NCBI RefSeq assembly: GCF_018350175.1
Contig: NC_058368.1
Location: 89,778,001 to 89,842,000, forward strand
Origin: Felis catus
Lineage: Eukaryota
DNA length: 64,000 bases
Reading direction: 5' to 3'
The notes below the pieces were generated by a model. The model did not search any database. It was not told the origin of the DNA and saw only the letters and a program-made list of their open reading frames with translations. This document shows, one piece after another, positions 30,470-52,800 of this stretch; the stretch's first letter is position 1; every line of letters begins with the position of its first letter. The translations under genes and the position numbers were made by a program.

Positions 30470-30581
30470 CACTTATTTCAAGCTCTGCCCAATGTGATTT
30501 CTTTCCATTTGCTGCTTCTTCAGAGGACATAATTGTGTACATCCTCCTAGGGTCAGGAGGCTCGTATTTTTCTTTGGGCAT
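30470..30581 (-). CDS. CNOT6: CNOT6 first coding exon (exon 2; exon starts at 30583, 112 coding nt)
   Basis: MPKEKYEPPDPRRMYTIMSSEEAANGKKSHWAELEIS(G) is the CNOT6 N-terminus. Acceptor tactgattgcttttttcaattcaacag|GCATG, donor G|GTAAGA at 30469. G+GA gives Gly across the junction with exon 3. Confidence 0.97.
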
Positions 30582-31330
30582 GCCTGTTGAATTGAAAAAA
30601 GCAATCAGTATTCTGAAGAACCAAATAACTGGAAATAACCAACATCCTTTTAAAAGTAAGTACCCGTATTATCATCTCTAAATACCACTTCCCACTAAAA
30701 AGAAGCTTCTTGGAGAAATGGAGAATTGCAGGTCCAGGATCAGAAAAATATAAAACAAGGCTGGGTGCTAACAAAGATGCTGTGACAGCAGACAGCTTGG
30801 AGAAGCTTCCATTGGCCACAAGTAAGACAACATGAACATCAAAGAATAACTATTAAAAAAAAATTTTTTTTAAAAATTCAGTCACCTAAAAAGTGGCAGA
30901 AGGGAAAGAATTAAGCATTTATCCTGCATTTCTGGCCAAAACTAAATAAGGGAATAATCTTAATAGAATTCCATCTAATAAATGCAGAAAGTTAAATAGT
31001 TAGAAAAATCACTATTTCACAACCCAAAACGAAAAAAAAAAAAAAAGGACGGAGACAATGACCACCAATGATTAATGAAAGCATTAGGTGAAAAAAGAAT
31101 ACAATGGAAAAATTACAAATGGATATTCAGGCTATGAGATGTCAACACAATGGTCCATCTCATCATTAGGATGACTAAACTCATGTGCCAACACGACATA
31201 TTTTGCCCCCTCATCTAAACATAGTAAAAATAAAAAAATTGAACATGAATCAAATCAAGCCCTCCTACTCCTGGTAACCAGTTGACACAAAATGAAGAGG
31301 ATAGAGGAATATGTTAAAAATAATACATTC

Positions 31331-31508
31331 GGGGTGCCTGGGTGGCTCAGGTCATGATCTGGTGGTTCATGAGTTCGAGCCCCACGTTGGGCTCTGCACT
31401 GACAGCTCAGAGCCTGGAGCCTGCTTCAGATTCTGGGTCTCCCTCTCTCTCTTCCCCTTCCCCACTTGTGCGCATGCACTCTCTCAAAAATAACATTAAA
31501 AAAAAAAC
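31331..31508 (+). mobile_element. CanSINE with internal deletion
   Basis: Head jumps from ggctcag to gtcatgatc; CT tract and A tail present. Confidence 0.85.
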
Positions 31509-32530
31509 ACAAGACATAACACGTGAACACACTGAACACTTCTGAACTGTATACTTAAAAATGGTGAAGGCAGCAAATTGTTATATTTAACCACAATTAA
31601 AATTTTTTAAAAAATTGTAAACAACTCCACAAAAATACAGCCAACCAGATACAGAATATGGAAAGTTCTACATGAGAAAGATCCAATTTCTTCAAAAATA
31701 AAGGACATGAAAAAGAGGAGACCAAATTGACATGGATTATACAACTTACAGGGCACAGCAATGAAATGCAATACCCACACCTTGTTTGGGTCCAATTTGA
31801 ACAAACCAAGCATAAAAATTTTTGAGAATTTGAAAAACTAAATGTAAGTTGATACTGAAAGATTACTCTTCATTTCATTTGTGGTTATTTCCTTAATCCT
31901 TATCTGTTATCCATACATTCTGACATATTTACGTGAAACGAAGTCTCACACCCTTGCATATCCCCCAAACTCCTTGCCTGAGTCTTACTTCACCTTATTT
32001 GTTTGGATGAGCCCAAAGCCACTTAAGCCAACTCTCCACCTACTATGGATACATACCCAGCTAAATATAGCCAGAGAAAAACCTACTACACCATGTGAAC
32101 TTAAAGGGAATCACTCAGCAACCACTTACCTCAAATGGACTATTTATGCCGCCAAGAAATTATACTTTAAATTCTCCTAGTCCCTTCTACATGACTTTCT
32201 CTTCAAACTTCTAACATTTACCCTCCATCCTCCCTTTCTTACTTCCATTTTCTCATTGAAACAGAAAACAACCAAAAGAGGCCTTTCTATGAACTCCCAC
32301 CCCCACCCATCTACACTCTCATTTAGTAGGACAAATTGCCCCTCTGAACACTCAATCTCATCCCCATCATCTTGCCTGTTGAAGGACATTACTTGGCAAT
32401 TCTTTCCTACATCACTTTCCCCCTCTATACTAGATCTTTATCTTCAGTATACATATATATGGTATTATCTCCTTTATTTAAAAGTCCTGACCCCATTTCC
32501 CCCTCCAGTTACACTTTTTTTCTCATTCTC

Positions 32531-32533
<3 letters not shown>

Positions 32534-32580
<47 letters not shown>
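32534..32580 (+). repeat. (CA)n microsatellite
   Basis: Uninterrupted CA run. Confidence 0.95.
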
Positions 32581-32582
<2 letters not shown>

Positions 32583-33009
32583 TTATCCTTGGAAGTTACA
32601 TATGCTGTCTCCTCCTCCCTTTTTCCCAGTTAAAATCATTCAAATCCGTATGTGCTTTTAACATTCCACCAAAAACTGCCAGGAAGAAAACCAGTGGCCC
32701 AACATTGTTATAATCAATGCTCGTTTCTTAGACCTACTTTTGCTTGTCCTACGATCAGTATTTGATGTAGATGATCACTCCCTCTTAGACAGACTCACTC
32801 AGTTGGCTTCCAGGATATCTTTTCTCTTGGTTTTCCTCTCATCTTACTAAATTTAGTCTTTTGCTAGTTCTTCCTACAGTCAGAATTAACTCCATTTTAC
32901 CAGCAGAAACCTGAAGCCCAAAAACGTTTAAGAAATTTAACCAGCATTATAAGGCTGGGAAGTAGCAGAGTCAGGCTTTGATTGCATCTGATTAAAAAGT
33001 TAAAGCTAC

Positions 33010-33295
33010 TTTCTAAGTGAAATAAGACAATCACAAAAAGACAAACATTATTTCATTTACATGAGGTACTAAAGTAGTCAAACTCACAGAGACAGAAAGT
33101 AGAATGGCAGCTGCCAGGGGCTGGGGAAGGGAAGTTACTGAATGGGTGCAGAGTTTCAGTTTACGAGAATTACGGAGATGGATGCGGGGTAACTGTTGTA
33201 CAACATTATGAATGTATTTAATACTACTGAATGCTACATTTAAAAATGGTTTTAAGATGATAAATTTTATGTACATTTGCCACAATAAAAAAAGA
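33010..33295 (+). mobile_element. L1M 3' end fragment
   Basis: ctaagtgaaataagacaatcacaaaaagacaaac ... tttgccacaataaaaaa. Confidence 0.75.
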
Positions 33296-33796
33296 CTGGA
33301 AAAAAGTCAAAGCAACTTTCATTATACTATGCTGCCTTCCTAACTGATGGGAAGTAGAGCTATTTTTGAAACAGAAATGAGCTTTGGGCAGTCAAAACAT
33401 AGAAGTAAATAATCCTTAAAAAGCTGCTTTAAAAAATATAAATGATGAGACTAATCATCTGCACAAGAAACAGCACATCTATTTTTTGTTTTCTTAAATA
33501 TTATTGATGAAACTGTTGTCTTACATGTTAACTTCTGGAAAAGAGAAATACAAGGTCTGAAGTTTTTAGACTGTTACAAAATACCTAACAGAGAGCTATA
33601 CAGTCAGAAAACTGTTCCTATTCTAGAAGACAATCTGGCAAAGCAAGTGCCTTTTCTGAATGATATGAATATCCTAGTAATAACCTAGAAAATATAAAAC
33701 GTTGTGTAAGGCTACCAAAGCTTGATGGTTAACAGTGCTTAAGATCACCCAAATGCCATGATTTTGATCAGACTCTACTTAGAAAACAACCATCTG

Positions 33797-34030
33797 GGGG
33801 CACCTGGGTGGCTCAGTTGATTGAGCATCCAACTTCAGCTCAGGTCATGATCTCGAGGTTCATGAGTTCAAGCCCCACACTGGGCTCTGTGTGACAGCTC
33901 AGAGCCTGGATGGAGCCTGCTTCAGATTCTGTGTCTCCCTCTCTCTGTGTCTGCGTGTGTGTCTCTCTCTGCCCCTCCCATGCTCATGCTCTCTCTCTCT
34001 CTCTCAAAAATAAATAAGACATTTAAAAAA
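33797..34030 (+). mobile_element. CanSINE
   Basis: Full element; caaccatctg flanks both sides. Confidence 0.9.
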
Positions 34031-37000
34031 ATTTGGAAACCAACCATCTGATCTTCATTGGCTTTTCCAAATAGAATTTAACAATGGTAAGAAATTGGCT
34101 CTCTCCAGCTGAGTTTAGTATCTTGGTCCTATTATTAATCATTTGACTCCTTAGTGAAAGTTCAGAAGTCTGATTTGCCAACTACATGTGAGCTTGAATC
34201 AAGGTCCAGAGTTTGATTCCACTTCGGAGAATGGACAGAAGTGCCACTGAACTAATAAGAAATCTGAAAACTAGGCCCTGCACTTGGGGTCATTCCATTA
34301 GAGGGTCATAATTTCTGCATAGGTAGCCAACCACTCCCTTTCTTGATTTTTCATAATGTGGGATGGGTTGTCTTAAAATTTAAGAGACAGCTCATTAAAT
34401 GTGAAAGCAGTGAGGAGATCATCTTTATTTCCAAATCCCTGAGACTGAGGATTCGGAAGTGGGGGTGGGGGGAGGTGTATGACAGCAGAGAAGTTGGCCA
34501 ACCACTATACTGTACACCTGAAACTAATTTCAGGTGTCAACTATAGTCAAATTTAAAAAAAAAAAAAAAAGCAAATTGGACAAACTCCAGAAGCAGCAAG
34601 ACAAGCACATCTGCCCACTGAACACCTCCCCATTTTTTTTTTTTTTTTTTTTTTTGACTCTGGCAAAGCACAGCATCGGTAGGGAAAAGGATATAAGAAT
34701 GCACACAATTTAGGATCTTTCCCAAGACTTTGAAATCAACAAGCAGATCTCTCCTCTAAATAATCTGCAGTGGCATACCTTATTTTTATCTAAAAAGACT
34801 AAAAGGTTTCCAAAACAGACTTAAAAACTGTCAAGGATTACAAAAGAATTAGAAACAGCTAGGCCAGGGTAAGCAGCTATGCAGCACCTGACTAGTCAAT
34901 CCCCTATCCCTCCAACCCAATACCAGACATCACTACTGACCCTGGCAACATAAAACCCACGCCCACTCTGGATCTGAGAAACAGTTTTTCATTATCTTAG
35001 AATAATTATTTGCCTTAAAGAAACACAGGACATAATTTACCAACATAGAAAGACAGGCTTTCATAATTAAACATTTTAAGAAATGGCCTCAAAATACAGA
35101 ACTATAATCACAGTGGGAAAGTTAGCGTTGGCAAAGCAGAGTTACAAACCATAACACAACTAATAAGGTTATCCTGGAGTGTTTAAACTAAGAGTGGCCT
35201 AACTGCATACCATAAACTTAGAAAAACAGCTATCTAAATGAGGAAAAAAAATTAGGAACCTACAGATTCTTTACCTAACATTTCCAGAAATGGTCTGTGT
35301 GTGTGTGTATGAATATGGTGCAGTGAGGGGCCTGGGGCAGGAATCACAGGGAGGGGTTACGAGGGATTTATCAGAATCTAAAATAAAAGAACACCTAAAT
35401 AGGAAACAGACTAGAATGAAGATACAAAGATAACTTGCAAAAAGTTATACCCCACCCCCATAGCCCTAAAAAGATTCATAGTTCCCTAATCAAAGGCCTT
35501 ATATTAAATCTATTTTAACCATCCTCTGGCTAGGAGTGGAAAGAAACAGCTGCTAGAAACAGGAACATAAAGAAAGGGGTAGGAACCTCTGGTCTTTTTC
35601 CTGTTAGGAAACAAACTTCTACCAATCAAAACCAGGGACAATCAGGTATCTGAATGTTCCCATGGAAGGAATATGTAATTATAAAAAACCACCAACTGGG
35701 GGCTGAAATCCACTAATCATAACTACCCACAGCCAATAGGTGTGCCACAGCCTGCCTCTCCCTCATCTGTACTTAACCTTCACAATCAGTCCGGGTGGAA
35801 GCCAACAGAAGTGCTTAAGTACCCACCCACACCATATCTGTATAAAATGCAAGTCAACAGAGTGGTCAATGTCAAACACAAATTAAGCATAATACACGTA
35901 GCACAATGATTATACAAAATCATACACAAGAGAAAAGAAATACTACAGAAATCGAAAAACATTCCACAAAAAAATTGTTTCTTATGCTTAAAAAACTACA
36001 TAAACAAAAACTACAAATAAAGAAGTCAACTGTGCAACAACAAAAAGTGAGATAAAAAGAGTGTAGATCTAAGAGTGTAGAGGAAAAAATATTTGAATAT
36101 TAGAATCTCTAGAACAAAATCAAGGCAAAAAAGGAAAGTCACAGACTACATAAACATAATTCCTACTAAAACAAGAGGCAAAGACAGGTGAAAATTAAAT
36201 ACACGTTTATATGGAAAAACAAAAGAAAAGAGATGATTAACATAATATCTAAGAGAGTAATTGAGTAATGCCATAACTCAATAAACCTACGCTTTGGTAT
36301 TTACCAAAGAGAAAAAAAACCTCATTTCCAAAAAAATACATTTATATAAACTTGCATAATAGTTTTATTCATAAGTGCCAAAACCTGAAAACTGAAATGT
36401 CCTCAACAATGAAAGGATAATCAAAGGATAAATACTACTCAGCAATAAAAAAGGAATAAACTATTGATACATAACACACATATACAGACGAATCTCAAAC
36501 ATTACACTGAATGAAAAAGACCCAAAAGAGATTCCATTTACATGAATTTGCAGTGGTAACAATGGCTGCCCTAATGGGAAATGATGAAAATACCCAATAT
36601 CTTAAATGAGGTGTGGTTTATATTGGTATATATTATGTATCAAAATTCAAACTGTACATTTAAGGCCTATACATTTTACTTTATATAAATTTTACCTTAA
36701 CTAAAAAACCTTCTGTACTCAAAGACTTGGTCAGGTGTGAAGACAAACAAAAGGACATTTTCAAGCAATTACTAACAAAACATACAACCCATGTACTTTT
36801 CTAAATTACTCATTATAGCATTATGACAAAAAGTGCACACAACTTAAGTGGCCATTAACAAGAATGTTCAATTAAATGAGTCACTCTACAGCCACACTAG
36901 GGGAAATCATGCAGCTGTGGGAAGAATGATGGTAAGTATTGGCATTACATTGAATTATTTACTTTGTATTTTAGGATTAAGCAAAGAATGACTTATGTCA

Positions 37001-38276
37001 ATGATGTTAAGAACCAAGATTTTCAGGGTAAGAAAGCATTTATAAATCAAGTGAAAACACCAACACCAAAACTGACTTGAGAATACCAATATAAACTAAT
37101 GATTTTAAATTTGTTTCTAACAATGCACTGGAGTGCTTCAGAAGCTATGCTATGTCTGGAATAACAGCACCTCTAATCCTCAGTTTTGATCTCTAATACC
37201 AAGAAAGCAAAGTTCTTTGTAAAATGGATGATTACAAGTCTGGGGCAGGAAATGTATAAAATGTATAAAGCCTGAGGCATCCTTTAGTGCCAAAAACCTA
37301 AGTCAACAGGACACAGGAGCCAGTTAGAAGGGGTCCTCACTGGCCAAAACTGTGGACAACTTGAGCAAAAAGAATCATAAGTATAAAGGAATGAAATACA
37401 CTGAATCAACAAAGATGTGTAGATAATATAAGTACCTGTGCTACAGAAAACAGCTGGCAGTGCTGTAAAAGGTGGATTAGCAGCAGAGGAAACTACTGCA
37501 GTAATCAAGGCAAGAAGAAAGCAAGGGGGAGGAGGAGGAAAGGGAGTGCCAAAGGTGCAAGTTAGACAAACACCATTGCAGGCAGCTTTCAAACTAAGAA
37601 AATTGGTCACCAAAGAGAAAGATTTAGGTGTTTAACTTTTCAGCAAGTACCGCATTTGAGTTAACCAAACAGTTCCAGTTGAAGAACAGCCCCACTTTAC
37701 AAAAGAATGACAGCTAACAAATGAACGAATAATAAAAAAAAAAAGGCAATATCATTTTATAACTCCTTTTTAAGGCAAGGATTCTAAATTGTGTTAAAAC
37801 CATTAGATGAATCACTGGCACTGGTGTAATGCTAAGGTAACACCATCATCCAAATTGTTTTTGGATCACAAGGTAGAAAATGTTCAAGGGAGGAATAAAA
37901 GGTTACCTTCTTCAATCTTCACGACACTAACGGGGGGGGGGGGGGGGAACCAGACACTGACTGAGTCTCTTGATATGACAGAACCCCAAGTGCACATCAA
38001 CAATGTTCACCTTGATGAAGAACTAGAGGAACTGGCCAGATAACACCAAAGAAGCAATCAGACAAAGTGAGAATGCAGGAGCTTCTGCAGGATAACTGGT
38101 CTGCTTCAACAAGCTGGTGCCAGAACTATTTTAGATTTGAAGAGAATTAAGGGATACATAATCAGAGGTAATAAATGGTCCCTATATAAGACCCACAAAT
38201 CAGCAATAAAGGACATTTTGTAGGCAGCTGGGGAAACATTTAATACCTAGTTCATATTTAAAATATGAATGAATAA

Positions 38277-38480
38277 GGGACGCCTGGGTGGCTCAGTTGG
38301 TTGAGCTCTTGATTTCAGCTCAGGTCATGATCTTGCAGTTTGTGAGATGGAGCCCCGTGTCTGGCTCTGTGCTGACAGATTCTTGGGATTGATTCTCTCT
38401 CCCTCCCTCCCTCCCTCTCTCTCTCTCTCTCTCTGTCCCTCCTCTGCTCATGCTCTCTCTCGCTAAATAAATAAACATGA
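38277..38480 (+). mobile_element. CanSINE
   Basis: Head, CT tract, aataaa; aatgaataa on both flanks. Confidence 0.85.
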
Positions 38481-38836
38481 ACAAATTTTAATATTAATGA
38501 ATAATTATGAAATCATGTTATTTTGGCCATGTACAAAAATGTTAAGAGGCACTCTGAAGTTGAAGAATTTATTTTAATTATATTGGCCAGATCTTTTTCA
38601 AGGAAAATGAAGTTGAATTACAGCCATCCTCAACTGACAAAAAATGCTAAATTTAACATCTCTTTTTTCCTTTTTACATTTTCATATCCATTCTTTGTGT
38701 ATTCTTTCTCAAACATGAAGGAGAAAAGGACTGGGGCAGAGGAAAGGGAGGCAGGGAAGCAGAAAGAAACTCATGCGCAGAAAGACCCTTTTGATTGACT
38801 TATCAGGCCCCTGTCAGAGCTACAAGTTAGGGTGTA

Positions 38837-39111
38837 CAGTTGACACCTGAACAACACAGCTGAAAACCCATGTGTAACTTCCGACTCCCCAAAATCTTTA
38901 CTAATAGCCCACTGCCGACCTCAAGCCTTACTGATAACATGAACGTCTGATTAATACATATTTTGTATGTTATATATTATACACTGTATTCTTACAATAA
39001 AGCTAGAGAAAAGAAAATCATATGGCAGAGAAAGTAGTTACAGAACTGTACTATAAAAAATCGACACATAAATGGACCTGTGCAGTTCAAACCCGTGTTA
39101 AGAGACAACTG
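38837..39111 (+). mobile_element. Tigger2-type MITE
   Basis: TA|cagttgacacctgaacaacac ... cccgtgttaagagacaactg|TA terminal inverted repeats. Confidence 0.8.
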
Positions 39112-40502
39112 TATTTGAAAAACTAGTGACACTAACCTTGGTGCCAATTTATTTCTTCTAATCCAATCTTTCACTAAATCAGACTGATTTTTAACTCTTT
39201 ATAATTTCTAAACCTGTCTTCTCCATTTTCATTGCTACTGAAGCTAATTTACACCCTCCTCATTTCTCACCTTCAAGTACTAACAATCTCCTCTATCCAC
39301 ATCTACCTTCCAGATAGATGCCTGCTCATGTTGCTCCCCTGCTTAAAAACCAAAGATGGCCCTTTCCACCAATCTACCTACCTAAATTTCAAATTCCTTT
39401 ATTATCTAGACTTAGCCAACTATTTTCTCATTCCTCTTCATCCACTTACACTCATGCCACCCTATAAAGTCCTAAATTGATTACAGCAAACCTACTTGTA
39501 AGGGGTAGTATTTTAGTATGTGCTAACCCCTTCACCAAAGACAACCTTCACGCTAGACTTCTACTCGCCCTCCAAGCAAACCCAAGTCACATGTTGGAGC
39601 CTCTGTAAACCCTTCCCAATAAAAGCACATGTTCACTACTCCCTCCTCTGTGCACCAAACACTTTCTCCACCATCTGTCACACCGAACACCCAAACAGTT
39701 TGCATCTCCCGGAGTCTGGTGGAAGCACTACTAGAACATTCCACTAATGAACTGGTCTAAACATTCTTTCATTCATAACCCAGAATCAGGTTTTCACAGA
39801 AGAAAAATCCCAAAGCAACTCAGTACATCTGAACCATGCTTCCTTAGGGAGCTTTCTTTACAGAATCACTCATTCACCAAATGCTTACTAATCACCTTCT
39901 CTGTGTCAAGTACTCTGTCAGGTGCCAGGAATAAACAACAAATAAATACATGGTCATGGCACTTTATCTGCTTGGGGAGCAACAATTTCACAATCATATA
40001 ATCACACTACAATCCTTTCTTATTTTTACAGTCATCACTCTAATTTAGGACTTTGCCTTTTTTCAACTATTATAATAAACTCTCATAATTGGTATTTATG
40101 CCTTATAGATTACAACTAACCTACATAACACTCTCAAATTATTAATTATTATTAACCTACATAACACTCTCAACTTCTAAAGCTGAGTCCTAATTACACT
40201 GCAGAATTTAGGAAAAAGAACCATTCTTTGTAAAAAACTGGGAAGTCTTCTGGAATGATTTCTGGTCCTATATCAGCTTTAAAACTGGGATTCTATGGCA
40301 TCCTCTCTCCCATCACTGCCCCCCACCTAAACTTTCTACTCCTTAGAAAACAAATTCAAACTTCTTAGTTTAGAATTCAAAATATTCCCTTTCCAGATTT
40401 TATCCAATACTTTTTTTTTGGATGTAACTGCCATCCTTCAAATATGCTCCACTATCTTCTATTACCATTACAAAAACACCAAGCCACTCTAAGAATGCCA
40501 CC

Positions 40503-40537
40503 AAAAAAAAAAAAAAAGAAAAAGAAAGAAAGAAAAA

Positions 40538-40605
<68 letters not shown>

Positions 40606-40635
40606 AAAGAAAGGAAAGAAAAAGGAAAAGAAAAA
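40503..40635 (+). repeat. Poly(A)/(GAAA)n microsatellite
   Basis: A-run grading into GAAA repeats. Confidence 0.93.
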
Positions 40636-43164
40636 GTTACTCCCTCTTTGAATACAATCCAATTTATTCACAGGTACATTAAAAATCTGCATAACAATAA
40701 ATACTAATTTAACCTGTTTTCTGTTCCTACCAAGACATGTAATAAGACATGTAAAATGTCACATAAACACAATAATTCGATGCTTTTTTAAAATATGAAA
40801 ACACTCTGGAATTTTAAATCGATAGTAATTATGGCAGGCCTAGCACACCCTGTACCTTACCTTCTGTTTCTTCCAGGTGTATTAGTTGAATTCTACACAT
40901 GAGAAACATGTGACTCTCTGTAACTGAAATCAGCTACTTCCCGCGGACTATATTCTTAAGTCTTTTTTTAGAACTTCAAGTCAGTTAAGGCACAGCTCCA
41001 TCTCACTTTAAACCCCAATCATCCTGACTCTCAATGTCATCACATTTGTCTTCTTTTTCTATCCAGATTTCCAGCACGATTGATGGGCCAATTAAAAGTT
41101 TACACAGATGATAAGCCTCATTCAGGAGCTGTCCTTAGTGGCAAAACTATCACCCTGTCTATCACTAGTGCCCTGTGGCAAGCCAAGCATAAAAAAACCT
41201 TTGCAAGAAGACTACTCTTATCTAAAACGCAAAACTTAAATCCAAACTGTGAGATCTGTTGAGTTCAAGGCTACTGTTATAAACAGCCAAAGATACAGCA
41301 GGTATCTTACATTTCATGATTATCTCTCAAAACAGGTTTCTGAATTGCATAGGAGAGATAATAGAAAAAAACAAGGCACCAAAAAGATCTTACTAAAAAG
41401 TGAAATTGTCATCTTGGTCTTCCAACCTGCCCTTCCTCTATGATCCCCACACTAGCTTTCCAAGCCAGAAATAGGAGTATTATCCTTAACTCCTTCCTAT
41501 CCAATCCCAGCCTTCATATCCAGTTCCCTAGTTCTAGTCCACTTGACCTCCTAAATCTTCGTCTCACCCAATCTGTCTCAACCTCCCAGGCTCTTCCCTG
41601 AGATACGAGCTAATGCAACAGTCTCAGACCCACGTTCTTCTGCTGCACCCCAACTTGAATGCAGCCCTAGACACTATCCAAAGTGACCTCCTAAAAACAC
41701 AAGTACTTAACTCATGGTCCTAAAACCACATCTCCTTCATCTTTGCACCCACGGACTGACAGTGCACCTGACACAAAGGAGGCTCAAATATGAGTTGAAT
41801 TAAACAGAGGAAACCCAGGCTCATCTACAAAACAGGCCCCTGTGTGCCTCTCCAGTCATATCCAATTCCCACTTACCTCTCACAAACCTCTGTGCTTTAC
41901 CATATGCTATCGCTCCTGCCTGAAATGCCATCTCTCCCTCTCCTCCAGATACCTTAAGGAACTCTGGTCATCTTCAAATGCCAAATCAGATATCCGACTT
42001 CAAACAGGTCCTTCCTTCCCTATCCCTCCCAAACACAGAGCTTATCATTCCCTGCTTTGAGCTTTTCCGAACCTTGAAGATTTTTTCTATAAGAGTATCT
42101 TTAACCACACCTGACTTTCTCTTTTATGTCTCACTCACCTACTCTAATATAGCTCCTTGCACTTCTATTTTTAATATTTTTTCTCTTCAGAGCCTGGCAA
42201 ATAGTAAGTGCTTGGTGAATAATTATAAGAATTCAAGGAGAGAAGCTGTGATAGTTAAAAAAAAAAAAAAAAGACAGCAAACATTTGTAAGAGACAAGTG
42301 TGCTAACAGAAGCAGGGCCCATTTTACCAGCAATAAGAAAAACTAACATCTATACTTCTAACCTTGAAAGCAAAATCTAGAAAAACCAGACAGAAAGGAC
42401 CAAAAACCGAGAGTACTGGTTCTAGGACAAGAATCAAGGGGACAAACTTAAAGATTAAATTGTATAAACATAATCTTAGTGACATGCCCTAGCAGATTAA
42501 GAGCAAACCTCAAACAGATGGGGGTAACGGCAAAACTGTGTTGCACTGCCCATCTGCCACACTCTGCACTTGGCAGTAACAGCCAATGTTATCTGAGCAC
42601 TCACCTCGTGACAGGCCTATCAGGCCCTTCACATACATGGTCTCATTTAACCCTTCAGGACTCCTGTAAGTAAATACTACTATTCTCCTTACAAACAGAA
42701 GGGAAGGTCCAGAGAATGAGTAACTTGCCCGAGGTCACAGAGATACCAGTGGCACAACTATGATTTTAACCCAAGTCTGATCCACAAGTCTGTGCTCTAT
42801 CTAACCACTATGCAGTCATTTACTTTTATTACTCTCAATTCAATTCTCAAAGCAGCCCATGAGTTAGATAATACCGCATTGTATTTTAGACGAAGACACA
42901 AGGGTTTAAATCATTTGCCAAGGTCATACATGCTTGTTAAGTAGTAGAGCTGGGGGGCGGGGGGAGGGGTTGAACCTAGGACAATCTAGCTCTTCACACA
43001 ACTCTAGAATTCTGTCACTGATAAAGCCAAGATCTCATGTTCATTCCTCAAATATTGTGTGGTTGAGACCATCAGCCCTCCAGTTTCCTTCACAGATATA
43101 TCATCTTTCCAAGCTACTCCCCACCTGCCTTCTCTACTCCCAACCTCTGCCTAATACTCTAAGA

Positions 43165-43620
43165 CAGCAGATCTCAAACACTATCACCTCAGAATGCTTA
43201 CATACTTCTAAAAACTCACAAATACCCCCAAAGAGCTTTCATTTATGTCGGTTATACCTATCAACATTTGTCATCCTAGAAATTAGAACTAAGAAAATTT
43301 TAATATGTATTAACTTGTTAAATATACAACCATCCCATGTTAAAACATTTTTATGAAAAGGAACTATTTTTGAAAACAAAGTAAAATTTTGTGAGAAGAA
43401 TGACACTGTCTTGCATTTTTGCAAGTCTCTTTAATGTCTGACATACTAGAAGACAGCTGGATTCGCATATCTGCTCCGAAGTCAATCTGATCAGATCCCA
43501 CACATCATTTTTTTTAGCTTCTGGAAAACTCCACTGTACACTCATTAAGAGATTAAGAACGAAAAAGACAAATAACATCTTAGTAATATTTTTAAGAACT
43601 TAAGGTTTCTGTAGCCACCT
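43165..43620. mobile_element. hAT-Charlie-type DNA transposon fragment
   Basis: Motifs cccaaagagctttcatttatgtcggttatacctatc and gaagacagctggattcgcatatctgct recalled from the Charlie1 group. Confidence 0.6.
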
Positions 43621-44044
43621 CCCCCTCCTCCTAAAATCTCACACACAATTTCCTTAAATCCTTTTTCAAGTAGTACAAAAATAAGTTCCAGTCCAAATTG
43701 GTTTAAAATTTCCAATCAGTAAAAGACCTTGGTGAAAATGGAGCGATTTTTAAATTATGGTAAAATATTCCTCCAAAACATAGAGCTGAACAGCAGATGT
43801 AGCAGTCAAAACCAAGCTCTAACAGGAAAAGATCGGCATACCCATCTGCATCCGCAGTGCCCAGCCCGTAACAGACAGCCTGCAACAGCCTGTCACCAGA
43901 CTCCTGTCACAACGCAATTCTAACTGTGTGCATGGGCCCAATCACACACGAGTGAGTATAAAATATAGTCAGAGAAGCAGAGAGAGAAGTTTCCTGTGCA
44001 ACAACCATAGGAAACTACCAATTTGAAAGGTCAAAAATGGTTCA

Positions 44045-44215
44045 GGGGGCACAGCTCAGTTGGTTGGGCATCCGAATTTAGCTCAGGTCATGATCTTGTG
44101 GTTTGTAAGTTGTTTATGAGTTTGAGCCCCAGATCAGGCTTGTTGCTGTTGGCGCAGAGCCCACATCAGATCCTCTGTCCCCCCCTCTCTGCCCCTATCC
44201 CACTTGCGCTCTCTT
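44045..44215 (+). mobile_element. CanSINE (degenerate, tail-less)
   Basis: Head and CT tract present. Confidence 0.75.
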
Positions 44216-45233
44216 ACTTATTGAAATACTAGCAATTTCAGTCAATCCAATAAATTAACTCAAAACACAACTATGAAAATACAGCAAATACAGGTTAGGT
44301 TAGATTTTTATTTTCTATATTTGAAGTTAAAGTACAACATACTAAGACAAGTAAGATTTGCCATCTAATCAGCAAAAGCTAAGTAAGTGCCCACTAATAA
44401 GCAGGGTAAGTAAGTCAAAACCTCACCAAGATCAAAACAGCAAGGTAAGGGGGGCCACCAATCCTAAATCTGCTCCTTAGCATGAGATAAGCTGTAAACA
44501 ACCATCTCATTTACAGCTTCAGCACCAAATGATGGATGCCAACAGAAATCTCTTCATTTCCTTCTTATCTTTTGTCAGATTTTCCATAATCTATTTGCTG
44601 CTCTCTCTCTTACAATAACTCATGATAGTCTAGCTACCACCAACTAGTGGTGATTTTGGCCTTTGAGGCATTCAACATTTATTCTAATTCATATATCCAA
44701 TCACTTAGGAGGTTTTAATATCCTGGCCATGTTTTAACCCACTAGTCCTTTTTTCCCCTACAAGAAAATTATTCATGAAATGCTGACCTTACAAATCATC
44801 AATAATAACACTACAATATTGCTCTGAAGCTACCTAGTGATGTTTCAGAAGATTTGGAAAGAAATCTTAAGCAACTCTGTTGAAATGGAGTTCCATTATG
44901 CACTGCTTTCTGACCACATAAGTGACTGCCTTTTCCTAAAACAATGAAATGCTTTAAAACTGGATTTTTGGCCAGCATGAATAGTATTCTTATGTGGACT
45001 CTCATGAAGTTTTTGATCCATAACCTAAGAGGATCACAAATATTAAGAATCTGCCAGGTAGTTTCATTCTATCAACACGATCAGCCACCAATGTAAATGG
45101 TTATAAATCTGGGGCAGCAATTGGGTCTCCCTATATCATCAAATGTATATCAAAGGTCCATTCTAAGCCACAGCACCATGAGAGTGTGTTAGGACGGAAG
45201 TGGGGGATGTACAGTGAAATTAATACAAACTAG

Positions 45234-45645
45234 AGGGGCGCCTGGGTGGCTCAGCCAGTTGAGCATCTGACTCTTGATCTCAACTCAGGTTGAGACCAAT
45301 GTCATGGTCCTGAGACACAGCCCCACATCAGGCCTGCTTAAGATATTCTCTCTCTTGGGGGCGCCTGGGTGGTTCAGTCAGTTAGGCGTCCAACTTTGAC
45401 TCAGGTCATGATCTCGCGGTCCGTGAGTTCGAGCCCCGCATCAGGCTGTGTGCTGACAGCTCAGAGCCCGGAGCCTGCCTCAGATTCTGTGTCTCCATCT
45501 CTCTCTGACCCTCCACCGTTCATGCTCTGTCTCTGTCTCACAAATAAACATTAAAAAGAAAATTAAAAAAAAAGACATTCTCTCTCTTTCTCTCCCTCTG
45601 CCCCTCCCCTGTTCACTTGCACTCTCAAAAACAAAAACAAAAACA
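45234..45645 (+). mobile_element. CanSINE with a second CanSINE (45357-45573) nested in its CT tract
   Basis: Inner TSD aagatattctctctct / aagacattctctctct; outer flanks acaaactagag. Confidence 0.88.
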
Positions 45646-48600
45646 CACAAACTAGAGTCAAACAGACCGATATCAAGAAAGATATGTTTACATTCATCTT
45701 TAAGGCTAAAGCTTCCTCATTTATAAAATGATATCTACCTCACAATTTTGGTATGAGGATTAAATAAAATAACACATGTAAAGCACAATGCGTACCACAT
45801 CATTAGCATTCAACAAAGCTCCTTCTTTGACTGCAAATCCCTAAGTCTGAATATCTCTAGTCTCCCTAAAATTAGAAACCAAATGATAATTCTTTAGATG
45901 TCCCAAATAAAGTACAGTTTTCATTTTCAACAATTTTAGATGAAAATATACAAAAGAAGCTTTCAGTCCACAAAACATGGCAGTTAGCTTCATCAGATAC
46001 TGCTTTATGATGCTGTGGTGTTTGCATACAACCATACACAATCTTACGGAAGAAAAAAAAATTGCCCCCCAAAAAGCTGAATGCAAGAAATATTTTTGAC
46101 TTAACTTGAATAAATCTTCGTTTCTGTTTGGTCTTAATTAGCAAGGACTCCTCTAATATCCTTTTTCATCTATCTTGCCACACCACCCCCACTCAAAATC
46201 TGCCTGTTAAAAAAAAATCTATATGGGACAGCTAGATGTATCCAGAGAATCACCTGTAATACTCCTTTTAGATACAAAGATCACTGTCTAATTTTTGTTT
46301 TGTTAGATCTCCATATGCTTCCTTTGTAAGGTATATATGTGTAGCAAATAACTTTGAAAGAAAATGACTATGCCTTCTTTGCTACTATTCTACATTTAAA
46401 AGTACATCAAACATTTAACTCAACTGCAGACTGCTGAGCACAGGACAAATACAAATCTTAGCAAGGGAATATGAAGAGTAAATTTTAGGCTTTCAGTAAC
46501 TGAAGACTGAAAGTTCTAATATTATGATTTCACATCAGGTCCACCTCCAATGAGGAAATTTTTCCTTTGCTTTTTAAATCACATAAAATTCCACAAAGAA
46601 AAAGCTTTATGTGATCCAATAAAAAGTTCATCATTTCAGCTAATATATCAGGGAAAAGTCTGAAATATAAATATATATAGAAATTTCCTAAGTTTTGGGC
46701 TTAAGGAAAACATAAGGTAGGCAACAAATATAGGTGTTTACCTTCAGTCAACCCTGTCCTCTTCTTTATATTACCCCCTTTCCTTCTTTCCCACTCTAAA
46801 CTTTTCCAAACAGCAGTCTATAACATTTTTCCATCTTAACCTCCCATTTGTCCCCAGCCTAACCTACAGTCTGACTTCCACCTCCCTGGTCCCAGAAAAA
46901 TTTGCTCTGCTTATATTCACCTAACCGCCAAATCCTATTAAACTATTCTCAGAGCTCATCCTACCCTAAACCTGGCCATCACTCGTCACTGAAAACTCCC
47001 TCTTGCTCGGCACTCCTACCTTTCTTGGCATCTGTAATTGTACTCTCTTATTCTCCTACCTCTTTAACCATTTTATTGCCGTTGTGTCCAAAATGTAATT
47101 TTGGCTGTTCCTAAGGGTTCCCTTGGTCACCTCTTCTTCCTGTCCTATATTATCCTGTGTTTCATTAAGTAAGTTTCACACTTAAGCATATGCATATTTT
47201 TATTCTCTTCAGCAGGAGCCATAATTCTCAACCGATTCTCAAATGGGGACTCTACCTCCCTAAAAAAAGGTAAAAAGCATTTGTTCATACACTCTTCCTG
47301 AGTGATCTCCTAACTTCCAATACTAACTATATACTAACCCAGTCTTTAAAATTCCCAACCATACTCTGGTCCAGATACCTATTAAGACATAGTGCACCTA
47401 AATACCCAATGGGCATATGAAAGTCAGATGCAAAAGCAACCTATTCCACTTCCTTTGCCCAAATCTGCTCTTCTTCCTCTACTTCCCCCAAGTTAAATCA
47501 TACCAAGTTACCCAAGCTAAAAACCTTCTGAGTGGTACTCAATTCCCTATTTTTATAACTCATTGCTTGTCTGTCTCTAATTCTGGTATCTTTCAAATTT
47601 ATCCTATTCTTGCCCAGCTCCTATGCTGATATCCTTAGCCTCTCACAAGGACTTAAATGAACTCTGACCCCTTTCATCCACTGTCCGTATTTTTACTGTC
47701 TCCTGAAAAAAGTGTGTCACACACAATTGCCCCACTACTATCCACTCAACGTCTCAGTGGATCCCCAGGATATACAGACAGAAGTCCCAACACTTTAAGA
47801 AAAAGCCTTAGACTATTCACAAACTGTTTCCGGCCACTCCTCCTATCCCTCCCATCCTTGCGTCCTATGTTTCACAGCCAAAGTCGTATGTAACTTGACT
47901 TTGCAAATATCATTCCTTCTCCATGAAAAGTCCTACTCAGCCTGGCAAGTGCCTATTCACCCTTCAAAACTCAGCTTAAAGACCTCGGAGATGACTCTAT
48001 CAAGTTTCCCAAGCAGAATTAGTTGTTCCTTTCTTAGCACTTGCTTTGTATACTCCTTATTACTGTATAACCTGTGAGAGTTTTATTGGTCCATTTGTCT
48101 TTACACCCCACTATAAACCCCACTTGGGACAAAAGACCATAAGTCCCATAAGGATAGCAAGTCTATACATGGTGCCTAACATATGGGTGTTTGGGTATTT
48201 TTTGAACCGCGTTTCAGTACTATTTTAAAATGCTGTATTCAAGTATAATTAGTTCTGCTTTATTGCTTGTTCTGAAATGTGAGTTTGTTCCAGTGTGATT
48301 GATATATTAGGGAATTTAAGCGTAACGCAAAATTCTCATTTGCACGCCATTTCTCATCTGCATCTACCGCACTAAACGAAGGTAGAAAACTGCACCCAGC
48401 CAAACTGAGCTGAGCAGAAATACACAAAACACACACATCTTAAACACCCACCCTCCAGACAGTTCTCCATGTGTGTGATACAAGACACACCCACCCACCC
48501 ACATCTGGTGTTACTAAACATTCCATTTGATTTCAGATAACCTGCCTGCTACCACTTCAAAGTAACAAACAGCAAACATTTTGATGCCCATTTCCACAAG

Positions 48601-50469
48601 CAAATGAGGTCTTTCTCAATGTAAAGTGCCACATTTACTGGAATATTTAGATACTCCTTAGCCATTTCACATGTGTAAAACTTTGCTACCATTTTCATCA
48701 GGTTCCTTTTTCAAAATAAGTCACTACGTTTTTGAGGGTTGGACTCCAATCTCATTTTCCCCCACAAGGCCTGTAGTTTTTACTGCACAATCTTGCATAC
48801 CATGGTAGCTTTTGGGAACCTGTATGTTGCTACACAGCAGAATAGACTACATAAATTAACAGCTAGCTGTATCATGAGCTCAGAGACTTTAATTTCAATG
48901 CTCCAATTGCAGTAAATTACTGGAGAGAAAACTCTGCCCTCCTGCAAGTTTCACATACATATGGCCTATGTCCCAATAGACTATTAGGAGAGTTGCAATC
49001 TTTAAAAGTTGGTGCCTCCCACTTCTGGTGAGCAGAGAGTTGTTTTTTCCAGCTTAAGCTCTACAGTCTGCCTAAGCAGAACTCAAAAAACAAGTTCTCA
49101 GTGCCTGAATTTTCAAGTGTACCATTTTATGGGTTTCATTGTTTTGACTGCTTTTAACTTCTTCCAAAACATCCTGACATTTTGATTTTAAATTACCCAG
49201 CATTGTAAAGCAATTGGGCAAACCCTCAAGTCCACTATAAAAGGAACTACAGAACACAACAGACACTATATCCAAGTTAAAAAGATTCAGAGTCATTAAC
49301 TCCACAGTACCTAAAATGTGACTTTTTTTATATATAGGGCCTCCACTCAATCCTCCACACTGATGCCAAAGTGGTCTATAAATCACCTTGCTCCCATACT
49401 AAAAATATTTTGGTTCCTTCCTTTGCTACAGGATAAAGATATAAACCTCATTTTTAGTTGAGCAAGCATGGTCCTTCAAAATCTAGGCTGGGCACACCTT
49501 TGCAGGCCACTCTTCCTGTTCCATTAACACCTCACCATTGGGTCTTAGCCCAACTTTTGGCACCTGAGTGCACCCACCGTTCCCTTCTGTTTGAAATGAC
49601 CCCTCTCCCCAGTTTGACAAACACCTATTCTGCTGCTATTTTCTGTAAACTGGCCCCACGCCTTCTGCGAATTTATTCTTTCTTCTATTCTCTCATAGCA
49701 CTTCATGCACCTATGATAACTAGAGACTACATGACAAAAACTAGGTAGTATTCATTTTTGAACTCTCAGGGTCCAATACCGTGTCCAGCATGTTTTATTC
49801 CTTGACATCCAACTGAAGTTATCCAGAAAATATAAACTGATGACGGAGAGGTAAGGCCAGAGAAGGGTAAGGTTAAGGCAGCCTACACATGGGTCCTCAT
49901 TCTGGATACAAACAACCTACTCCTTTTCATTACTTGTTCAAAAACCAAAATATGGTGCATTCCATTGTACTTTAACATGCCAGGCTCTGTGTACAGGAAG
50001 TTTACAGTTTAATTTATCAAGTATATCTTAATTTCACATGGTGTTTCCTTAATCACACTTGTTGTAAACTGGCTACCTTTGGCAAGCGAGTAGCAGGCAA
50101 GGTGAAAGCAAAAAAAAAAAAAATAAAATAAGCCAAAAGTGGAAGCTGAGGATTTGAAAACTGAAATTGGAACCTTTTTCTACATAGCACTGAATTCCAC
50201 TCACAATAAAAAAACGCAAATAAGTGCTGCAGGCCCACAAATCTAAGTCTTTTCTGCATTAAAATATATATCCTTACTGAACCTATTTGGACTTTTCCAA
50301 AATGATAAGCATTTTAAAAGCATAGCTTCCCAATGAGCAAGCATATAGGAAAGTTAGTGGTCCCTCACCCCTCATGGACCAAAGGCTACGGCTGACCATT
50401 TATTCCAGTATGCCTTACATATATTATCCCTTTCCAGTGCACTACGATATGAAAAAGGTTTATGCTTCA

Positions 50470-50638
50470 GGGCACCTGCGTGGTTCAGTTGGTTAAGCAT
50501 CCAACTCTTGGTTTCAGCTCAGGTCATGATCTCACGGTTAGTGAGTTCGAGCCCCATATCAGGTCCTGCACTGGCAGTGCGGAGCGGTGCTTGGGATTCT
50601 TTCTCAAAATAAATAAATAAACTTAAAAAAAAAAAAAA
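50470..50638 (+). mobile_element. CanSINE with 18-bp TSD
   Basis: aaaaaggtttatgcttca at 50452-50469 and 50634-50651. Confidence 0.92.
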
Positions 50639-52429
50639 GGTTTATGCTTCAAAGAATATAAGAAGGTTAACACAAGTACAGTGGCATGCCTAAGCATGGA
50701 CCAAAATTCATATTTATAAACCAGTACAGTAGGCAAATTCCTACAATACCTTTATTTGCAGTCAGGACCAAGTTCTAAAACCAACTTCATTTCTAGTCAA
50801 GAGAAAATAGTCTGAAATTTTCCAATAATTGTAGTTTTGATTTACCAAGATTTAAGAAACCTGAATACACCTACAACCAAAACAGGCATTCAAAAGGGCT
50901 TCTTCATCTACATCCCACTGATCAAGACACTTCTGAAACTATGCAAAAATCAACTTTCAGAGAGTGAATCTTCCTGAAAATGTCTGTCTTCTAGCCCATC
51001 CTTGTTTTCACTACTTCATTAAGTATCTTGTTCACCTGAGAACTGAACAGACACATCTATCCCGAATAACTTCTACCCATTAAAACACCTTCTGCCCTCC
51101 CCACCAATTACATCACTCTTTGATGTGCTTTCACACTCACACAAAACCTGGTCCTTTCCCTTTAAAAGTACCTTGGGCAAATCACTTTAACCTCTTTAGG
51201 TCTCAGTTTCCACATGTAGCTTTACAAATATTTTGTTTAAAGCAAGGTGACTGGGCCAGATCACTGGTCTAAAAATATTAAGCAATTTTAACTCTGAAAG
51301 TCATCCCATTCTGAAGACTGTCATAACCGCTCTGACAGCAATTACAAGTCTTCAAAACCTCTTGATCAATGACCATATCAACTCTTAGAGCCAACAACAC
51401 TGTTTTGAAATGGTAAACCCTAGTGACTGTGAAAAACACAAAGTGCTATTAGGTGCCATTTTATTTGCCACTTGTTCATATTCCCTCTTTTCCTCTCCAA
51501 AATTAAATTTCCAGACACAAGAATGCAAGAAATTCCGCACTAACAATACAATCCACCTAGAAAATGGTAAGCGCAGGAACTCAAATTCAAGCAGATTATT
51601 TAAACAACGTCAGCTTAACACAGTAATTCCAAGAAGATCAAGCAAGATGACTATTCACAATGTTGTCATCTGCAGAAACAGTTAAAGAAAAGGTTACAGG
51701 TGTTAGCAGACTCTCCGGAGAAGATGAGAAAGGAAAAAGAGTCAAAAAGTTTACAAAGACAATAACGATTGGTGTTTAAACATAAAAAGGAGGATGAGGT
51801 TCGGGGTTACTGGAGAAAACGGCTTCAAGTAATTAATTAGGGCTATCTCCGAGCTCTGAGCAATACTATAAATCTTCAAATCTGGTGCTAAGTGCCTCTT
51901 CAACCAGGTCATTGTCACACCTCCCCCCTCCCCCCAAATCTGCGTTAAACTGAATTTTAAATACTTTTGGGGTAGAGGGTCAACAGTTGGTTTCCCGCGT
52001 TGCGGTAACTGCGAAGTTCCACACTCCACGGCGCACAATCCCACACAGCCACTCCGCCAAAGTTGCCACCCATCCTGGCCAAGAGTCCCCAACACCCACC
52101 CGCCTCCTCGGGATGACCAGAGTCGGGGTCCCAGGGCCCGGGCGCCGCTCCCCCGCGCCCTGAGCCCCCCAGTCCCCGCCGTCAATCAACGCCCCCCGCC
52201 CCCGGGCTGGGCGCGGGGGCGCGGCCTGGGACCCAGCCCGATCGGAGAAAGGCTTTCCCCCCTAAACAGCCGCCAGCTCAGCCAAGCTACGGGCTCGCTA
52301 CCCACAAAACTCAAGTTGCCCGCGCTAAGACCCCGCGCGCTTCGGTCTCGGGGGCACGACCGAGCGGGGGCCGTGCGCGGCCAGTGCGGGCAGCAGAGCC
52401 CGGCCGGGCCTCGGGTCCGTCTCCCTCAC

Positions 52430-52800
52430 CTCTCGGGGTGCGCCGCCTTCCTCCGCCGCTGCCGCCGCCTCCTCCCTGTGAGTGCAGCGGGGTCTGACCT
52501 GTGGAACCACCATACCAGTCCCGCCCGCTGCTGCAGCGCCGCCGCCGCCGCCGCCGCTCCTCCGCCGCCTCAGCCGCCGCTCTTTGTTCCCCCTCCGAGC
52601 GCCACCGCGTCAGCCGCCCGCCTCAGGCGCCCCGACGGGCCGCCACTATGCCCTCCCGCCCTCTCGGCCCCCGGCCTCGCCCTCCTCGCTGCGCCCACTG
52701 CCGCCTTCGCCTCCGCGCCGCCGACGCCGCCGCCACCGACGCCGCCGCCTCCTCCTTCGCGCCCCCCTCGTTTTCATTGAAAGCAAACAAGCATCATGGC
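52430..52800 (-). other. CNOT6: CNOT6 exon 1 (GC-rich 5' leader); 5' end approximate
   Basis: Lies within the only CpG island upstream of exon 2. Donor GAG|GTGAGG at 52429, with a weaker candidate CAG|GTCAGA at 52498. TSS inferred from the position of the CCAAT/GC boxes, not observed. Confidence 0.75.
52538..52557 (-). repeat. Short (GGC)6 trinucleotide repeat in the CNOT6 5' leader
   Basis: gccgccgccgccgccgccgc on the plus strand, flanked by further interrupted GCC runs. Confidence 0.85.

Follow-up and report, generated by a model that had tools for sequence, protein, structure and literature searches.

Overlapping upstream open reading frames (uoORFs) begin at an AUG in the leader of an mRNA, run out of frame with the main ORF, meet no stop codon before the main AUG and end inside the coding sequence (CDS); a uoORF represses the main ORF. 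In the leader of ATF4, a first upstream ORF (uORF1) of few codons precedes a second one (uORF2) that overlaps the CDS out of frame, and the arrangement acts through delayed reinitiation. A switch of the ATF4 type needs a short 5′-proximal uORF that allows efficient reinitiation, and long, slowly translated uORFs permit little of it. The CCR4-NOT complex has two types of catalytic deadenylase, and CNOT6 is one of them; a translational brake on CNOT6 would therefore feed into global mRNA turnover.

Upstream ORFs in the human CNOT6 leader are already on record. Two CNOT6 rows appear in the available part of the catalogue of GENCODE Ribo-seq ORFs in the supplement of Sandmann et al. 2023 (PMC10032668). 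The uORF c5riboseqorf135 lies 261 nt 5′ of the orthologue of the ATG with which we are concerned here, and c5riboseqorf136 starts at that orthologous ATG with a first block of 84 nt, continues in an alternative exon ~0.9 kb downstream and is classed as a “lncORF.” Both leader ORFs are labelled “primatomorpha - young” and have negative PhyloCSF scores; those listed for c5riboseqorf136 are −110 (primates) and −288 (mammals), with 0 MS studies. No ORF overlapping the CNOT6 start is found among these two rows of PMC10032668. The available part of a medulloblastoma preprint by Hofman et al. reports 720 uoORFs translated in at least 5 samples, and the legend of its Fig. S2P places CNOT6 among the genes in CRISPR tiling of “parental CDS and matched uORF or uoORF.” Within the portions of the literature that our search returned, no paper was devoted to a CNOT6 uORF, and the one supplementary file of PMC10187264 checked in that search had 0 occurrences; supplementary tables elsewhere may list the overlapping form. 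Going by the available catalogue rows, the start codon of the element described below has been catalogued before as translated in human, and the kind of element is ordinary.

A predicted uoORF at the 5′ end of CNOT6

We analyzed a 64,000-nt stretch of the cat genome (the window), on whose minus strand lies the 5′ end of a gene that, judging by its exon-2 CDS, is CNOT6. This CDS matches PDB entry 7ax1_A (CCR4-NOT subunit 6; E = 3.7e−20), in agreement with the identity proposed in the first-pass annotation. The same annotation had described a spliced ORF across the CNOT6 start codon, running from an ATG at 52513 through 28 codons of exon 1 and, from 30583, through 36 codons of exon 2 to a TAA at 30475-30473, and every one of these positions proved correct when checked against the sequence. 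The parts of this ORF are the following:

52430..52513, minus strand: exon-1 part of the uoORF, ATG plus 27 codons, up to the exon-1 donor (sequence)
52428..52429, minus strand: exon-1 donor GT, GAG/GTGAGG (sequence; in the available human row the first block ends equally far from the ATG, at 84 nt)
52497..52498, minus strand: second, weaker donor-like GT, CAG/GTCAGA, phase 0, with the exon end at 52499 (sequence only)
30470..30583, minus strand: CNOT6 exon 2, 114 nt, with the CNOT6 start codon; its +1 frame supplies the final 36 uoORF codons and stop (sequence; PDB match)
30473..30475, minus strand: TAA stop of the uoORF, formed by CDS codons ATA-AGT (Ile36-Ser37) (sequence; same TAA at the same place in a vertebrate contig, L001)

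The uoORF ATG (52513-52511, minus strand) reads ACTGGTATGG in context, with G at both −3 and +4, and exactly 28 codons lead from it to the end of the exon-1 part at 52430. As had been annotated, the main CNOT6 ATG (30581-30579, minus strand; AGAGGCATGC) has the weaker context, with G at −3 and C at +4. Exon 2 starts at 30583, just behind a pyrimidine tract and an AG (30585-30584), and its CDS contains both Met14 and Met18. From 30583, the +1 frame has 36 sense codons before the TAA, after which 3 nt of exon 2 are left before the donor GT at 30469-30468; the third frame of the exon contains 4 stops. Between 52830 and 52350, only the two donor-like sites listed above agree with the donor consensus at 7 or more of 9 positions. 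Both are in phase 0, as had been stated for the one at 52498, and use of that second site would give a uoORF of 5 + 36 codons.

Given that exon 1 is joined to exon 2 from 52430 or 52499, the frame opened at 52513 is out of frame with the CDS and has no stop before the main AUG (28 + 36 sense codons), and its termination lies downstream of that AUG (TAA at 30475-30473; main ATG at 30581). On the predicted exon 1-exon 2 mRNA, its AUG is located 86 nt 5′ of the CNOT6 AUG, in the +1 frame and with no stop between them, and it ends 109 nt past the start of the CNOT6 AUG, with the whole TAA included in the count; this geometry would make it a classical uoORF. At the level of sequence, the element in the CNOT6 leader is real, and as a uoORF it would be an ordinary one. 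The longest stop-to-stop frame spans 96 codons and offers no further ATG, GTG or TTG. An in-frame N-terminal extension of CNOT6 was ruled out, as the CDS frame meets a TGA 66 codons upstream without an ATG.

The start codon is shared with a human Ribo-seq ORF

Residues matching between the cat peptides and those of the human catalogue were counted by eye. The exon-1 part of the uoORF agrees with the first block of c5riboseqorf136, as given in the available row, at 26 of 28 residues (mismatches at residues 6 and 16), and because this block measures 84 nt, the donor is the same as in cat. The AUG of the first uORF precedes that of the uoORF by 264 nt in cat versus 261 nt in human, and the position of c5riboseqorf135 implies that human transcripts begin 5′ of both AUGs. 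The catalogue entry shows that human ribosomes initiate at the second, uoORF AUG. By sequence comparison, the ATG, the 84-nt block, the frame and the donor are common to cat and human. The start codon is conserved and is translated in human, and a 64-codon ORF on the main mRNA would follow as a corollary. Conservation of the ATG, frame and stop, which the first-pass annotation had named as a check, is borne out for the ATG and frame by c5riboseqorf136 (84-nt block, 26/28 residues), and for the TAA by its identical position in contig L001. The annotation had also pointed to a human overlapping ORF in ribosome-profiling catalogues. This comes close as regards the AUG and the donor, which are those of c5riboseqorf136, but the available row gives that ORF an alternative exon, the class “lncORF” and no overlap with the CNOT6 start.

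The AUG that opens a human Ribo-seq “lncORF” would also open an overlapping ORF on the main CNOT6 mRNA, one that is absent from the two catalogue rows. Because both start codons and both lengths are kept in a carnivore, the label “primatomorpha - young” may underestimate the ages of the CNOT6 leader ORFs.

Proposed effect on CNOT6 translation

Two further features of the region around exon 1 bear on how the uoORF may act:

52646..52777, minus strand: first uORF, 43 codons plus TAG, arginine-rich, with a weak start context of T at −3 and A at +4 (sequence; c5riboseqorf135 has the same length and 41/43 residues in the available row)
52000..54000, no strand assigned: GC-rich (0.63) promoter/CpG-island block around exon 1 (composition)

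The first uORF encodes 8 + 6 arginines, and the gap between its end and the uoORF AUG is 132 nt. It had been missed by the first-pass annotation (52777-52646), and the available catalogue rows include it for human. A CCAAT is located at 52872-52868, and the leader contains arrays of GGC/GCC triplets. The window as a whole has 17 carnivore-SINE head motifs versus 0 Alu motifs; these counts mark it as carnivore DNA and rule out a non-human primate source, which the near-identity to human peptides might have suggested.

The GC-rich, non-coding exon 1 of CNOT6 carries two AUG-started upstream ORFs, and we propose that the second of these (AUG at 52513), with its strong context, would engage scanning ribosomes on the predicted exon 1-exon 2 mRNA. 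Ribosomes initiating there would elongate across the CNOT6 AUG, Met14 and Met18, so that no CNOT6 would be made from them. How much CNOT6 is made would then be set by the share of scanning 40S subunits that bypass the uoORF AUG, among them subunits that have resumed scanning beyond the first uORF but are still unable to initiate. We consider it reasonably probable that the CNOT6 leader damps translation constitutively in this way and that the 64-residue peptide is a by-product and not a selected protein. For cat, we infer use of the 52430/30583 junction, a transcription start upstream of the uoORF, its translation and its repressive effect.

Exposure of the mRNA to NMD may accompany repression of CNOT6. 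NMD applies where termination takes place more than ~50 nt upstream of at least one exon junction, and its targets gain in mRNA level when the pathway is inhibited. The uoORF stop lies 3 nt before the exon 2/3 junction. More downstream junctions are expected in a multi-exon gene, and the exon 2-3 splice itself is visible in a transcript-like contig, L002.

An alternative exon and the expectation by chance

Downstream of exon 1, the cat sequence has a counterpart of the exon entered by the human “lncORF”:

51460..51556, minus strand: alternative exon, with an AG at 51558-51557 (sequence; positional counterpart of the second block of c5riboseqorf136 in the available row)

The exon contains an AATAAA (51465-51460, minus strand) and is separated from exon 1 by an intron of 873 nt in cat versus 888 nt in human. 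When it is joined to the exon-1 donor, the frame of the uoORF AUG runs for 17 more codons to a TAA at 51505-51503, and past the third codon the cat and human reading frames of this exon diverge. Use of the 51556 exon would make the uoORF short and non-overlapping, or end the transcript.

The competing explanation that survives best is that the AUG matters mainly on a transcript composed of exon 1 and this alternative exon, with its own AATAAA, and carries little or no weight on the main mRNA, and that conservation of exon 1 reflects constraint at the DNA or RNA level on a CpG-island promoter and a GC-rich leader. In keeping with it, the only ORF listed from the orthologous AUG in the available human rows enters the alternative exon and is classed as a “lncORF,” and exon, acceptor and AATAAA are all present in cat at the same distance. 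The whole leader also looks conserved, to the extent that the available rows allow comparison (41/43 and 26/28 residues; 264 versus 261 nt). Moreover, uoORFs are common by chance. In dinucleotide-preserving shuffles of the leader (n = 5,000), for which leader starts at 52700, 52785 and 52800 were assumed, an out-of-frame upstream ATG opened an ORF crossing the main ATG in 41%, 49% and 60% of the shuffled leaders, respectively. Among uniform synonymous recodings of the 37 exon-2 CDS codons (n = 100,000), 30% had no stop in the +1 frame before codon 37. The uoORF arrangement, seen in a single genome, is not beyond chance, and the conserved ATG need not mean that selection acts on it, because the entire leader appears conserved.

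However, scanning ribosomes meet this AUG, with its strong context unchanged, on every mRNA that retains exon 1, and therefore initiation on one isoform should occur on the other too. The missing catalogue row for the overlapping form is weak evidence, because ORF callers poorly detect frames that overlap a CDS. We regard a role confined to the alternative transcript as unlikely, if still deserving of some weight, and retain constitutive damping of CNOT6 translation as the preferred reading. The practical gains from this example are modest. As a kind of element it is ordinary, with hundreds of uoORFs catalogued and chance yielding one in about half of the leaders of such composition.

Stress control and dual coding, two improbable readings

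The presence of two leader ORFs also raises the question of whether CNOT6 is subject to ATF4-like delayed reinitiation, in which 40S subunits would go on scanning past the first uORF and, once eIF2-alpha is phosphorylated, would reacquire the ternary complex only beyond the uoORF AUG and start at the CNOT6 AUG, so that stress would raise CNOT6 synthesis. The order and geometry fit such a switch, as 132 nt lie between the end of the first uORF and the second AUG and the second ORF overlaps the CDS out of frame by 109 nt, and both ORFs are equal in length in carnivore and human. However, the 5′-proximal uORF is not of the short, reinitiation-permissive kind: it is 43 codons long, starts in a weak context and encodes a long run of arginines (8 + 6). 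The distance from the second AUG to the CNOT6 AUG is only 86 nt, and the portions of the literature searched include no paper devoted to a CNOT6 uORF. We consider this stress response improbable. There is similarly little likelihood, in our view, of a broader form, in which the CNOT6 leader would be a two-ORF switch kept from carnivores to primates and tuned by eIF2 availability, by ribosomes that stall within the poly-arginine uORF or by use of the alternative 51556 exon. If a two-ORF switch did exist, cells would make a catalytic subunit of their main mRNA deadenylase under direct translational stress control.

The first-pass annotation had further suggested that exon 2 would be dual-coding. 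We compared the exon with two loci that match a degenerate exon-2 CDS pattern in metagenome contigs: L001, which is genomic, and L002, which is transcript-like, with a 5′ inverted-repeat artefact and without the leader. Cat and L001 differ at 14 of 114 bases, and the alternative frame of L001 is open throughout exon 2 and ends at the same TAA. Counted by eye and against this one other species, 36 of 37 residues are identical in the CDS frame versus 24 of 36 in the alternative frame, a pattern that fails to indicate purifying selection on the alternative-frame peptide. A 24-base exon-1 pattern had 0 matches in the metagenome contigs. Two further searches bear on the predicted exon 1-exon 2 junction and the uoORF product. 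In a collection of 5.8 billion proteins, queried with a 40-codon contiguous reference (exon 2 plus 12 intron bases), no protein of 22 to 70 residues had words in common with the peptide read from exon 2 in the alternative frame, which counts against the preferred reading. The 2.43-Gb genome has 1 match to exon 2, the CNOT6 locus itself, and no retrocopy in which the junction would be preserved. The comparison of cat with L001 gives no sign of dual coding in exon 2, and the idea of a selected peptide is contradicted by the residue identities together with the negative PhyloCSF scores and 0 MS studies in the available human row. We consider it highly improbable that the 64-residue peptide functions as a microprotein and that exon 2 is truly dual-coding: the +1 frame is open through all of exon 2 with the same TAA in a second vertebrate and 26 of the 28 exon-1 residues agree with human in the available row, but the alternative frame has changed far more than the CDS (24/36 versus 36/37), the human ORF from the orthologous AUG scores −110 and −288, 30% of synonymous recodings leave the frame open anyway, and the TAA is built from codons just ahead of the donor that are under constraint in any case.

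Comparison with known systems

Among the described systems, c5riboseqorf136 is the closest in its start position, 84-nt first block, donor, gene and leader, with agreement at 26 of 28 residues in the available row. It differs in its continuation: beyond the first block, c5riboseqorf136 adds 30 codons from an alternative exon that lies 888 nt downstream, whereas the cat uoORF adds 36 from CDS exon 2 and extends across the CNOT6 start. A cat version that entered the alternative exon would stop after 17 codons in a shifted frame, where the human ORF adds 30. The other available human row, c5riboseqorf135, is the counterpart of the first uORF in cat (both 43 codons, 41/43 residues); unlike the uoORF, this type of ORF is separate, stopping 132 nt before the uoORF AUG without overlap of the CDS. 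The ATF4 leader is analogous in that CNOT6, too, would have two leader ORFs, the downstream one running out of frame into the CDS; however, the first uORF of ATF4 has few codons, and that of CNOT6 has 43 codons and a weak start context. With uoORFs as a class, the predicted CNOT6 element shares a leader AUG, an out-of-frame course, the lack of a stop before the main AUG and an end inside the CDS, and nothing structural appears to set it apart.

Structure of the CNOT6 leader and its proposed overlapping ORF

The elements of the CNOT6 5′ end considered here are listed below.

Features of the CNOT6 leader, intron 1 and exon 2
52777-52646, minus strand: first uORF, 43 codons (P0004), with a weak start context and an arginine run
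52513-52511, minus strand: ATG of the upstream overlapping ORF (uoORF), context ACTGGTATGG
52499/52498, minus strand: second donor-like site, also phase 0
ending exactly at 52430, minus strand: exon-1 coding part of the uoORF, 28 codons (P0001), followed by GTGAGG
51460-51558, minus strand: small exon-like block with acceptor AG at 51558-51557, 873 nt into intron 1
30583, minus strand: start of exon 2, preceded by a pyrimidine tract and AG
30581, minus strand: CNOT6 start codon in exon 2; the CDS reads MPKEKYEPPDPRRMYTIM... (P0002)
30475-30473, minus strand: uoORF stop TAA, after 36 sense codons from the first base of exon 2 and 3 bases before the donor

The exon-2 CDS peptide (P0002) matches PDB chain 7ax1_A, "CCR4-NOT transcription complex subunit 6" (E = 3.7e-20), and also the CNOT6L chain 7voi_C (E = 2.4e-18). 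Sequence reading and translation bore out the first-pass annotation in that the ATG at 52513 opens 28 codons up to the 52430 donor, the exon-2 frame continues for 36 codons to the TAA 3 nt before the next donor, and the alternative donor at 52499/52498 keeps phase 0. A scripted in silico joining of exons 1 and 2 likewise returned the proposed spliced ORF of 64 codons, whose AUG lies 86 nt from the CNOT6 AUG on the mRNA with the predicted junction. Within 52830-52350, the 52430 end and 52499/52498 are the only two donor-like sites that agree with a splice-donor consensus at no fewer than 7 of its 9 positions.

The first uORF, whose end is separated from the second AUG (52513) by 132 nt, encodes arginine runs of 8 and 6 flanking one tryptophan. 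Further upstream, an ATGATG at about 52797 (52794-52799, minus strand) in a GCCGCC context opens 7 codons; a CCAAT box (52872-52868) stands ~70 nt upstream of this ATGATG, which would be in the transcript only if transcription starts far enough upstream. The leader also carries imperfect GGC/GCC triplet arrays at 52537-52582 (15 copies) and 52700-52749 (17 copies), one of which stops ~25 nt short of the second AUG.

Because the G+C content of the leader is 76-78%, stop codons are rare in it. In dinucleotide-preserving shuffles (n = 5,000), 41%, 49%, and 60% of leaders with assumed starts at 52700, 52785, and 52800, respectively, had at least one out-of-frame uATG ORF over the main ATG. Only four CDS positions are able to make a stop in the alternative (+1) frame of exon 2, and that frame stays open to codon 37 in 30% of 100,000 uniform synonymous recodings. 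Within one genome, the uoORF arrangement is not beyond chance.

Conservation of the leader ORFs between carnivore and human

The 7,264 GENCODE Ribo-seq ORFs, as given in the supplement to Sandmann et al. 2023 (PMC10032668), include two CNOT6 rows. One, c5riboseqorf135, is a uORF of 43 codons; the other, c5riboseqorf136, is classed as "lncORF," starts 261 nt beyond it, and consists of an 84-nt block and a 93-nt block lying 888 nt downstream. Both are labeled "primatomorpha - young," with negative PhyloCSF and 0 MS studies. By eye, P0001 is identical to the first block of c5riboseqorf136 at 26 of 28 residues (differences at residues 6 and 16 only), and P0004 to c5riboseqorf135, of equal length, at 41 of 43 (differences at residues 26 and 27 only). 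On these matches, the uoORF AUG is orthologous to a human start codon that is catalogued as translated, and the donor is identical. The first-pass annotation had suggested that a human overlapping ORF is present in such catalogues: the start AUG and donor are indeed listed, but the listed ORF runs into an alternative exon, whereas the uoORF of the window would continue through exon 2 of the CDS.

Both leader ORFs are common to this carnivore and human, as are the ORF lengths, the distance between them, and the phase-0 donor. The AUG-to-AUG distance is 264 nt in the window versus 261 nt in human, a difference probably located in a GGC/GCC array. The human comparison is at the peptide level only, where selection on the ATG would look the same as general conservation of the leader. 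The age label agrees poorly with the start codons and the first uORF; for c5riboseqorf135, either the catalogue underestimates its age or the label has another meaning. The window is carnivore and not primate DNA: it holds 17 copies of a carnivore tRNA-derived SINE head motif (2484 to 63949; at most 3 mismatches; 0 expected) and 0 matches to an Alu motif.

The exon-like block in intron 1 corresponds by position to the second block of c5riboseqorf136. It carries the uATG frame on for 17 codons to a TAA at 51505-51503, with AATAAA downstream at 51465-51460. Its sequence is recognizably similar to that implied by the human peptide, but indels shift the frame, which departs from the human one after three codons; the "young" label is in keeping with the alternative-exon ORF.

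In the literature, Fig. S2P of the Hofman et al. medulloblastoma preprint includes CNOT6 CRISPR tiling among pairs of "parental CDS and matched uORF or uoORF"; CNOT6 was not found in one supplementary file of that preprint. No paper devoted to a CNOT6 uORF was found by title and abstract start among the matches listed, and "c5riboseqorf136" does not occur in the main texts of the papers searched.

Drift of the alternative-frame peptide in exon 2

A degenerate exon-2 pattern matched two metagenome contigs, both from another vertebrate; an exon-1 pattern had no match among these contigs. L001 is genomic, and L002 is a transcript-like CNOT6 contig in which exons 2 and 3 are spliced together (L002:700-957); at the 5′ end of L002, part of exon 2 recurs in inverted orientation, probably through an assembly artifact. 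Of the 114 bases of exon 2, 14 differ between L001 and the window. The alternative frame is open in L001 too and ends at the same TAA, which is composed from the pair of CDS codons nearest the donor. Identity is 36/37 residues in the CDS versus 24/36 in the alternative frame, and therefore, in this one comparison, the alternative-frame peptide drifts with synonymous change. This single comparison argues against the earlier view of exon 2 as dual-coding, if that is taken to mean selection on the peptide. No protein of 22-70 residues sharing words with the alternative frame was found in a large protein collection, and no exon-2 retrocopy was found in the genome (2.43 Gb, 71 contigs).

Proposed mechanism and alternatives

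We favor, with moderate confidence, a plain upstream overlapping ORF. For ribosomes starting at 52513, translation would proceed in the +1 frame over Met1, Met14, and Met18 and stop 109 nt beyond the CNOT6 start, so that these ribosomes would make no CNOT6; CNOT6 would be made by ribosomes leaking past this AUG. The anatomy and conservation of the ORF are observed, and human initiation at the orthologous AUG is documented on another isoform. The repression of CNOT6, NMD, and, in this species, use of the 52430/30583 junction are predictions.

That human isoform bears on a possible but rather unlikely alternative, in which the AUG at 52513 matters mainly on a short alternative transcript, with the conservation of the leader having other causes. 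An ATF4-like switch of the two uORFs is doubtful, being weakened by the 43-codon length of the first. A functional microprotein from the uoORF is highly improbable, given, in one comparison, the drift of its alternative frame and a TAA built from CDS codons.

The plain uoORF is of a kind already well known, and its start codon is already catalogued in human. To this, our analysis makes small additions: the overlapping form predicted on the main CNOT6 mRNA and the carnivore-human conservation of the leader ORFs.
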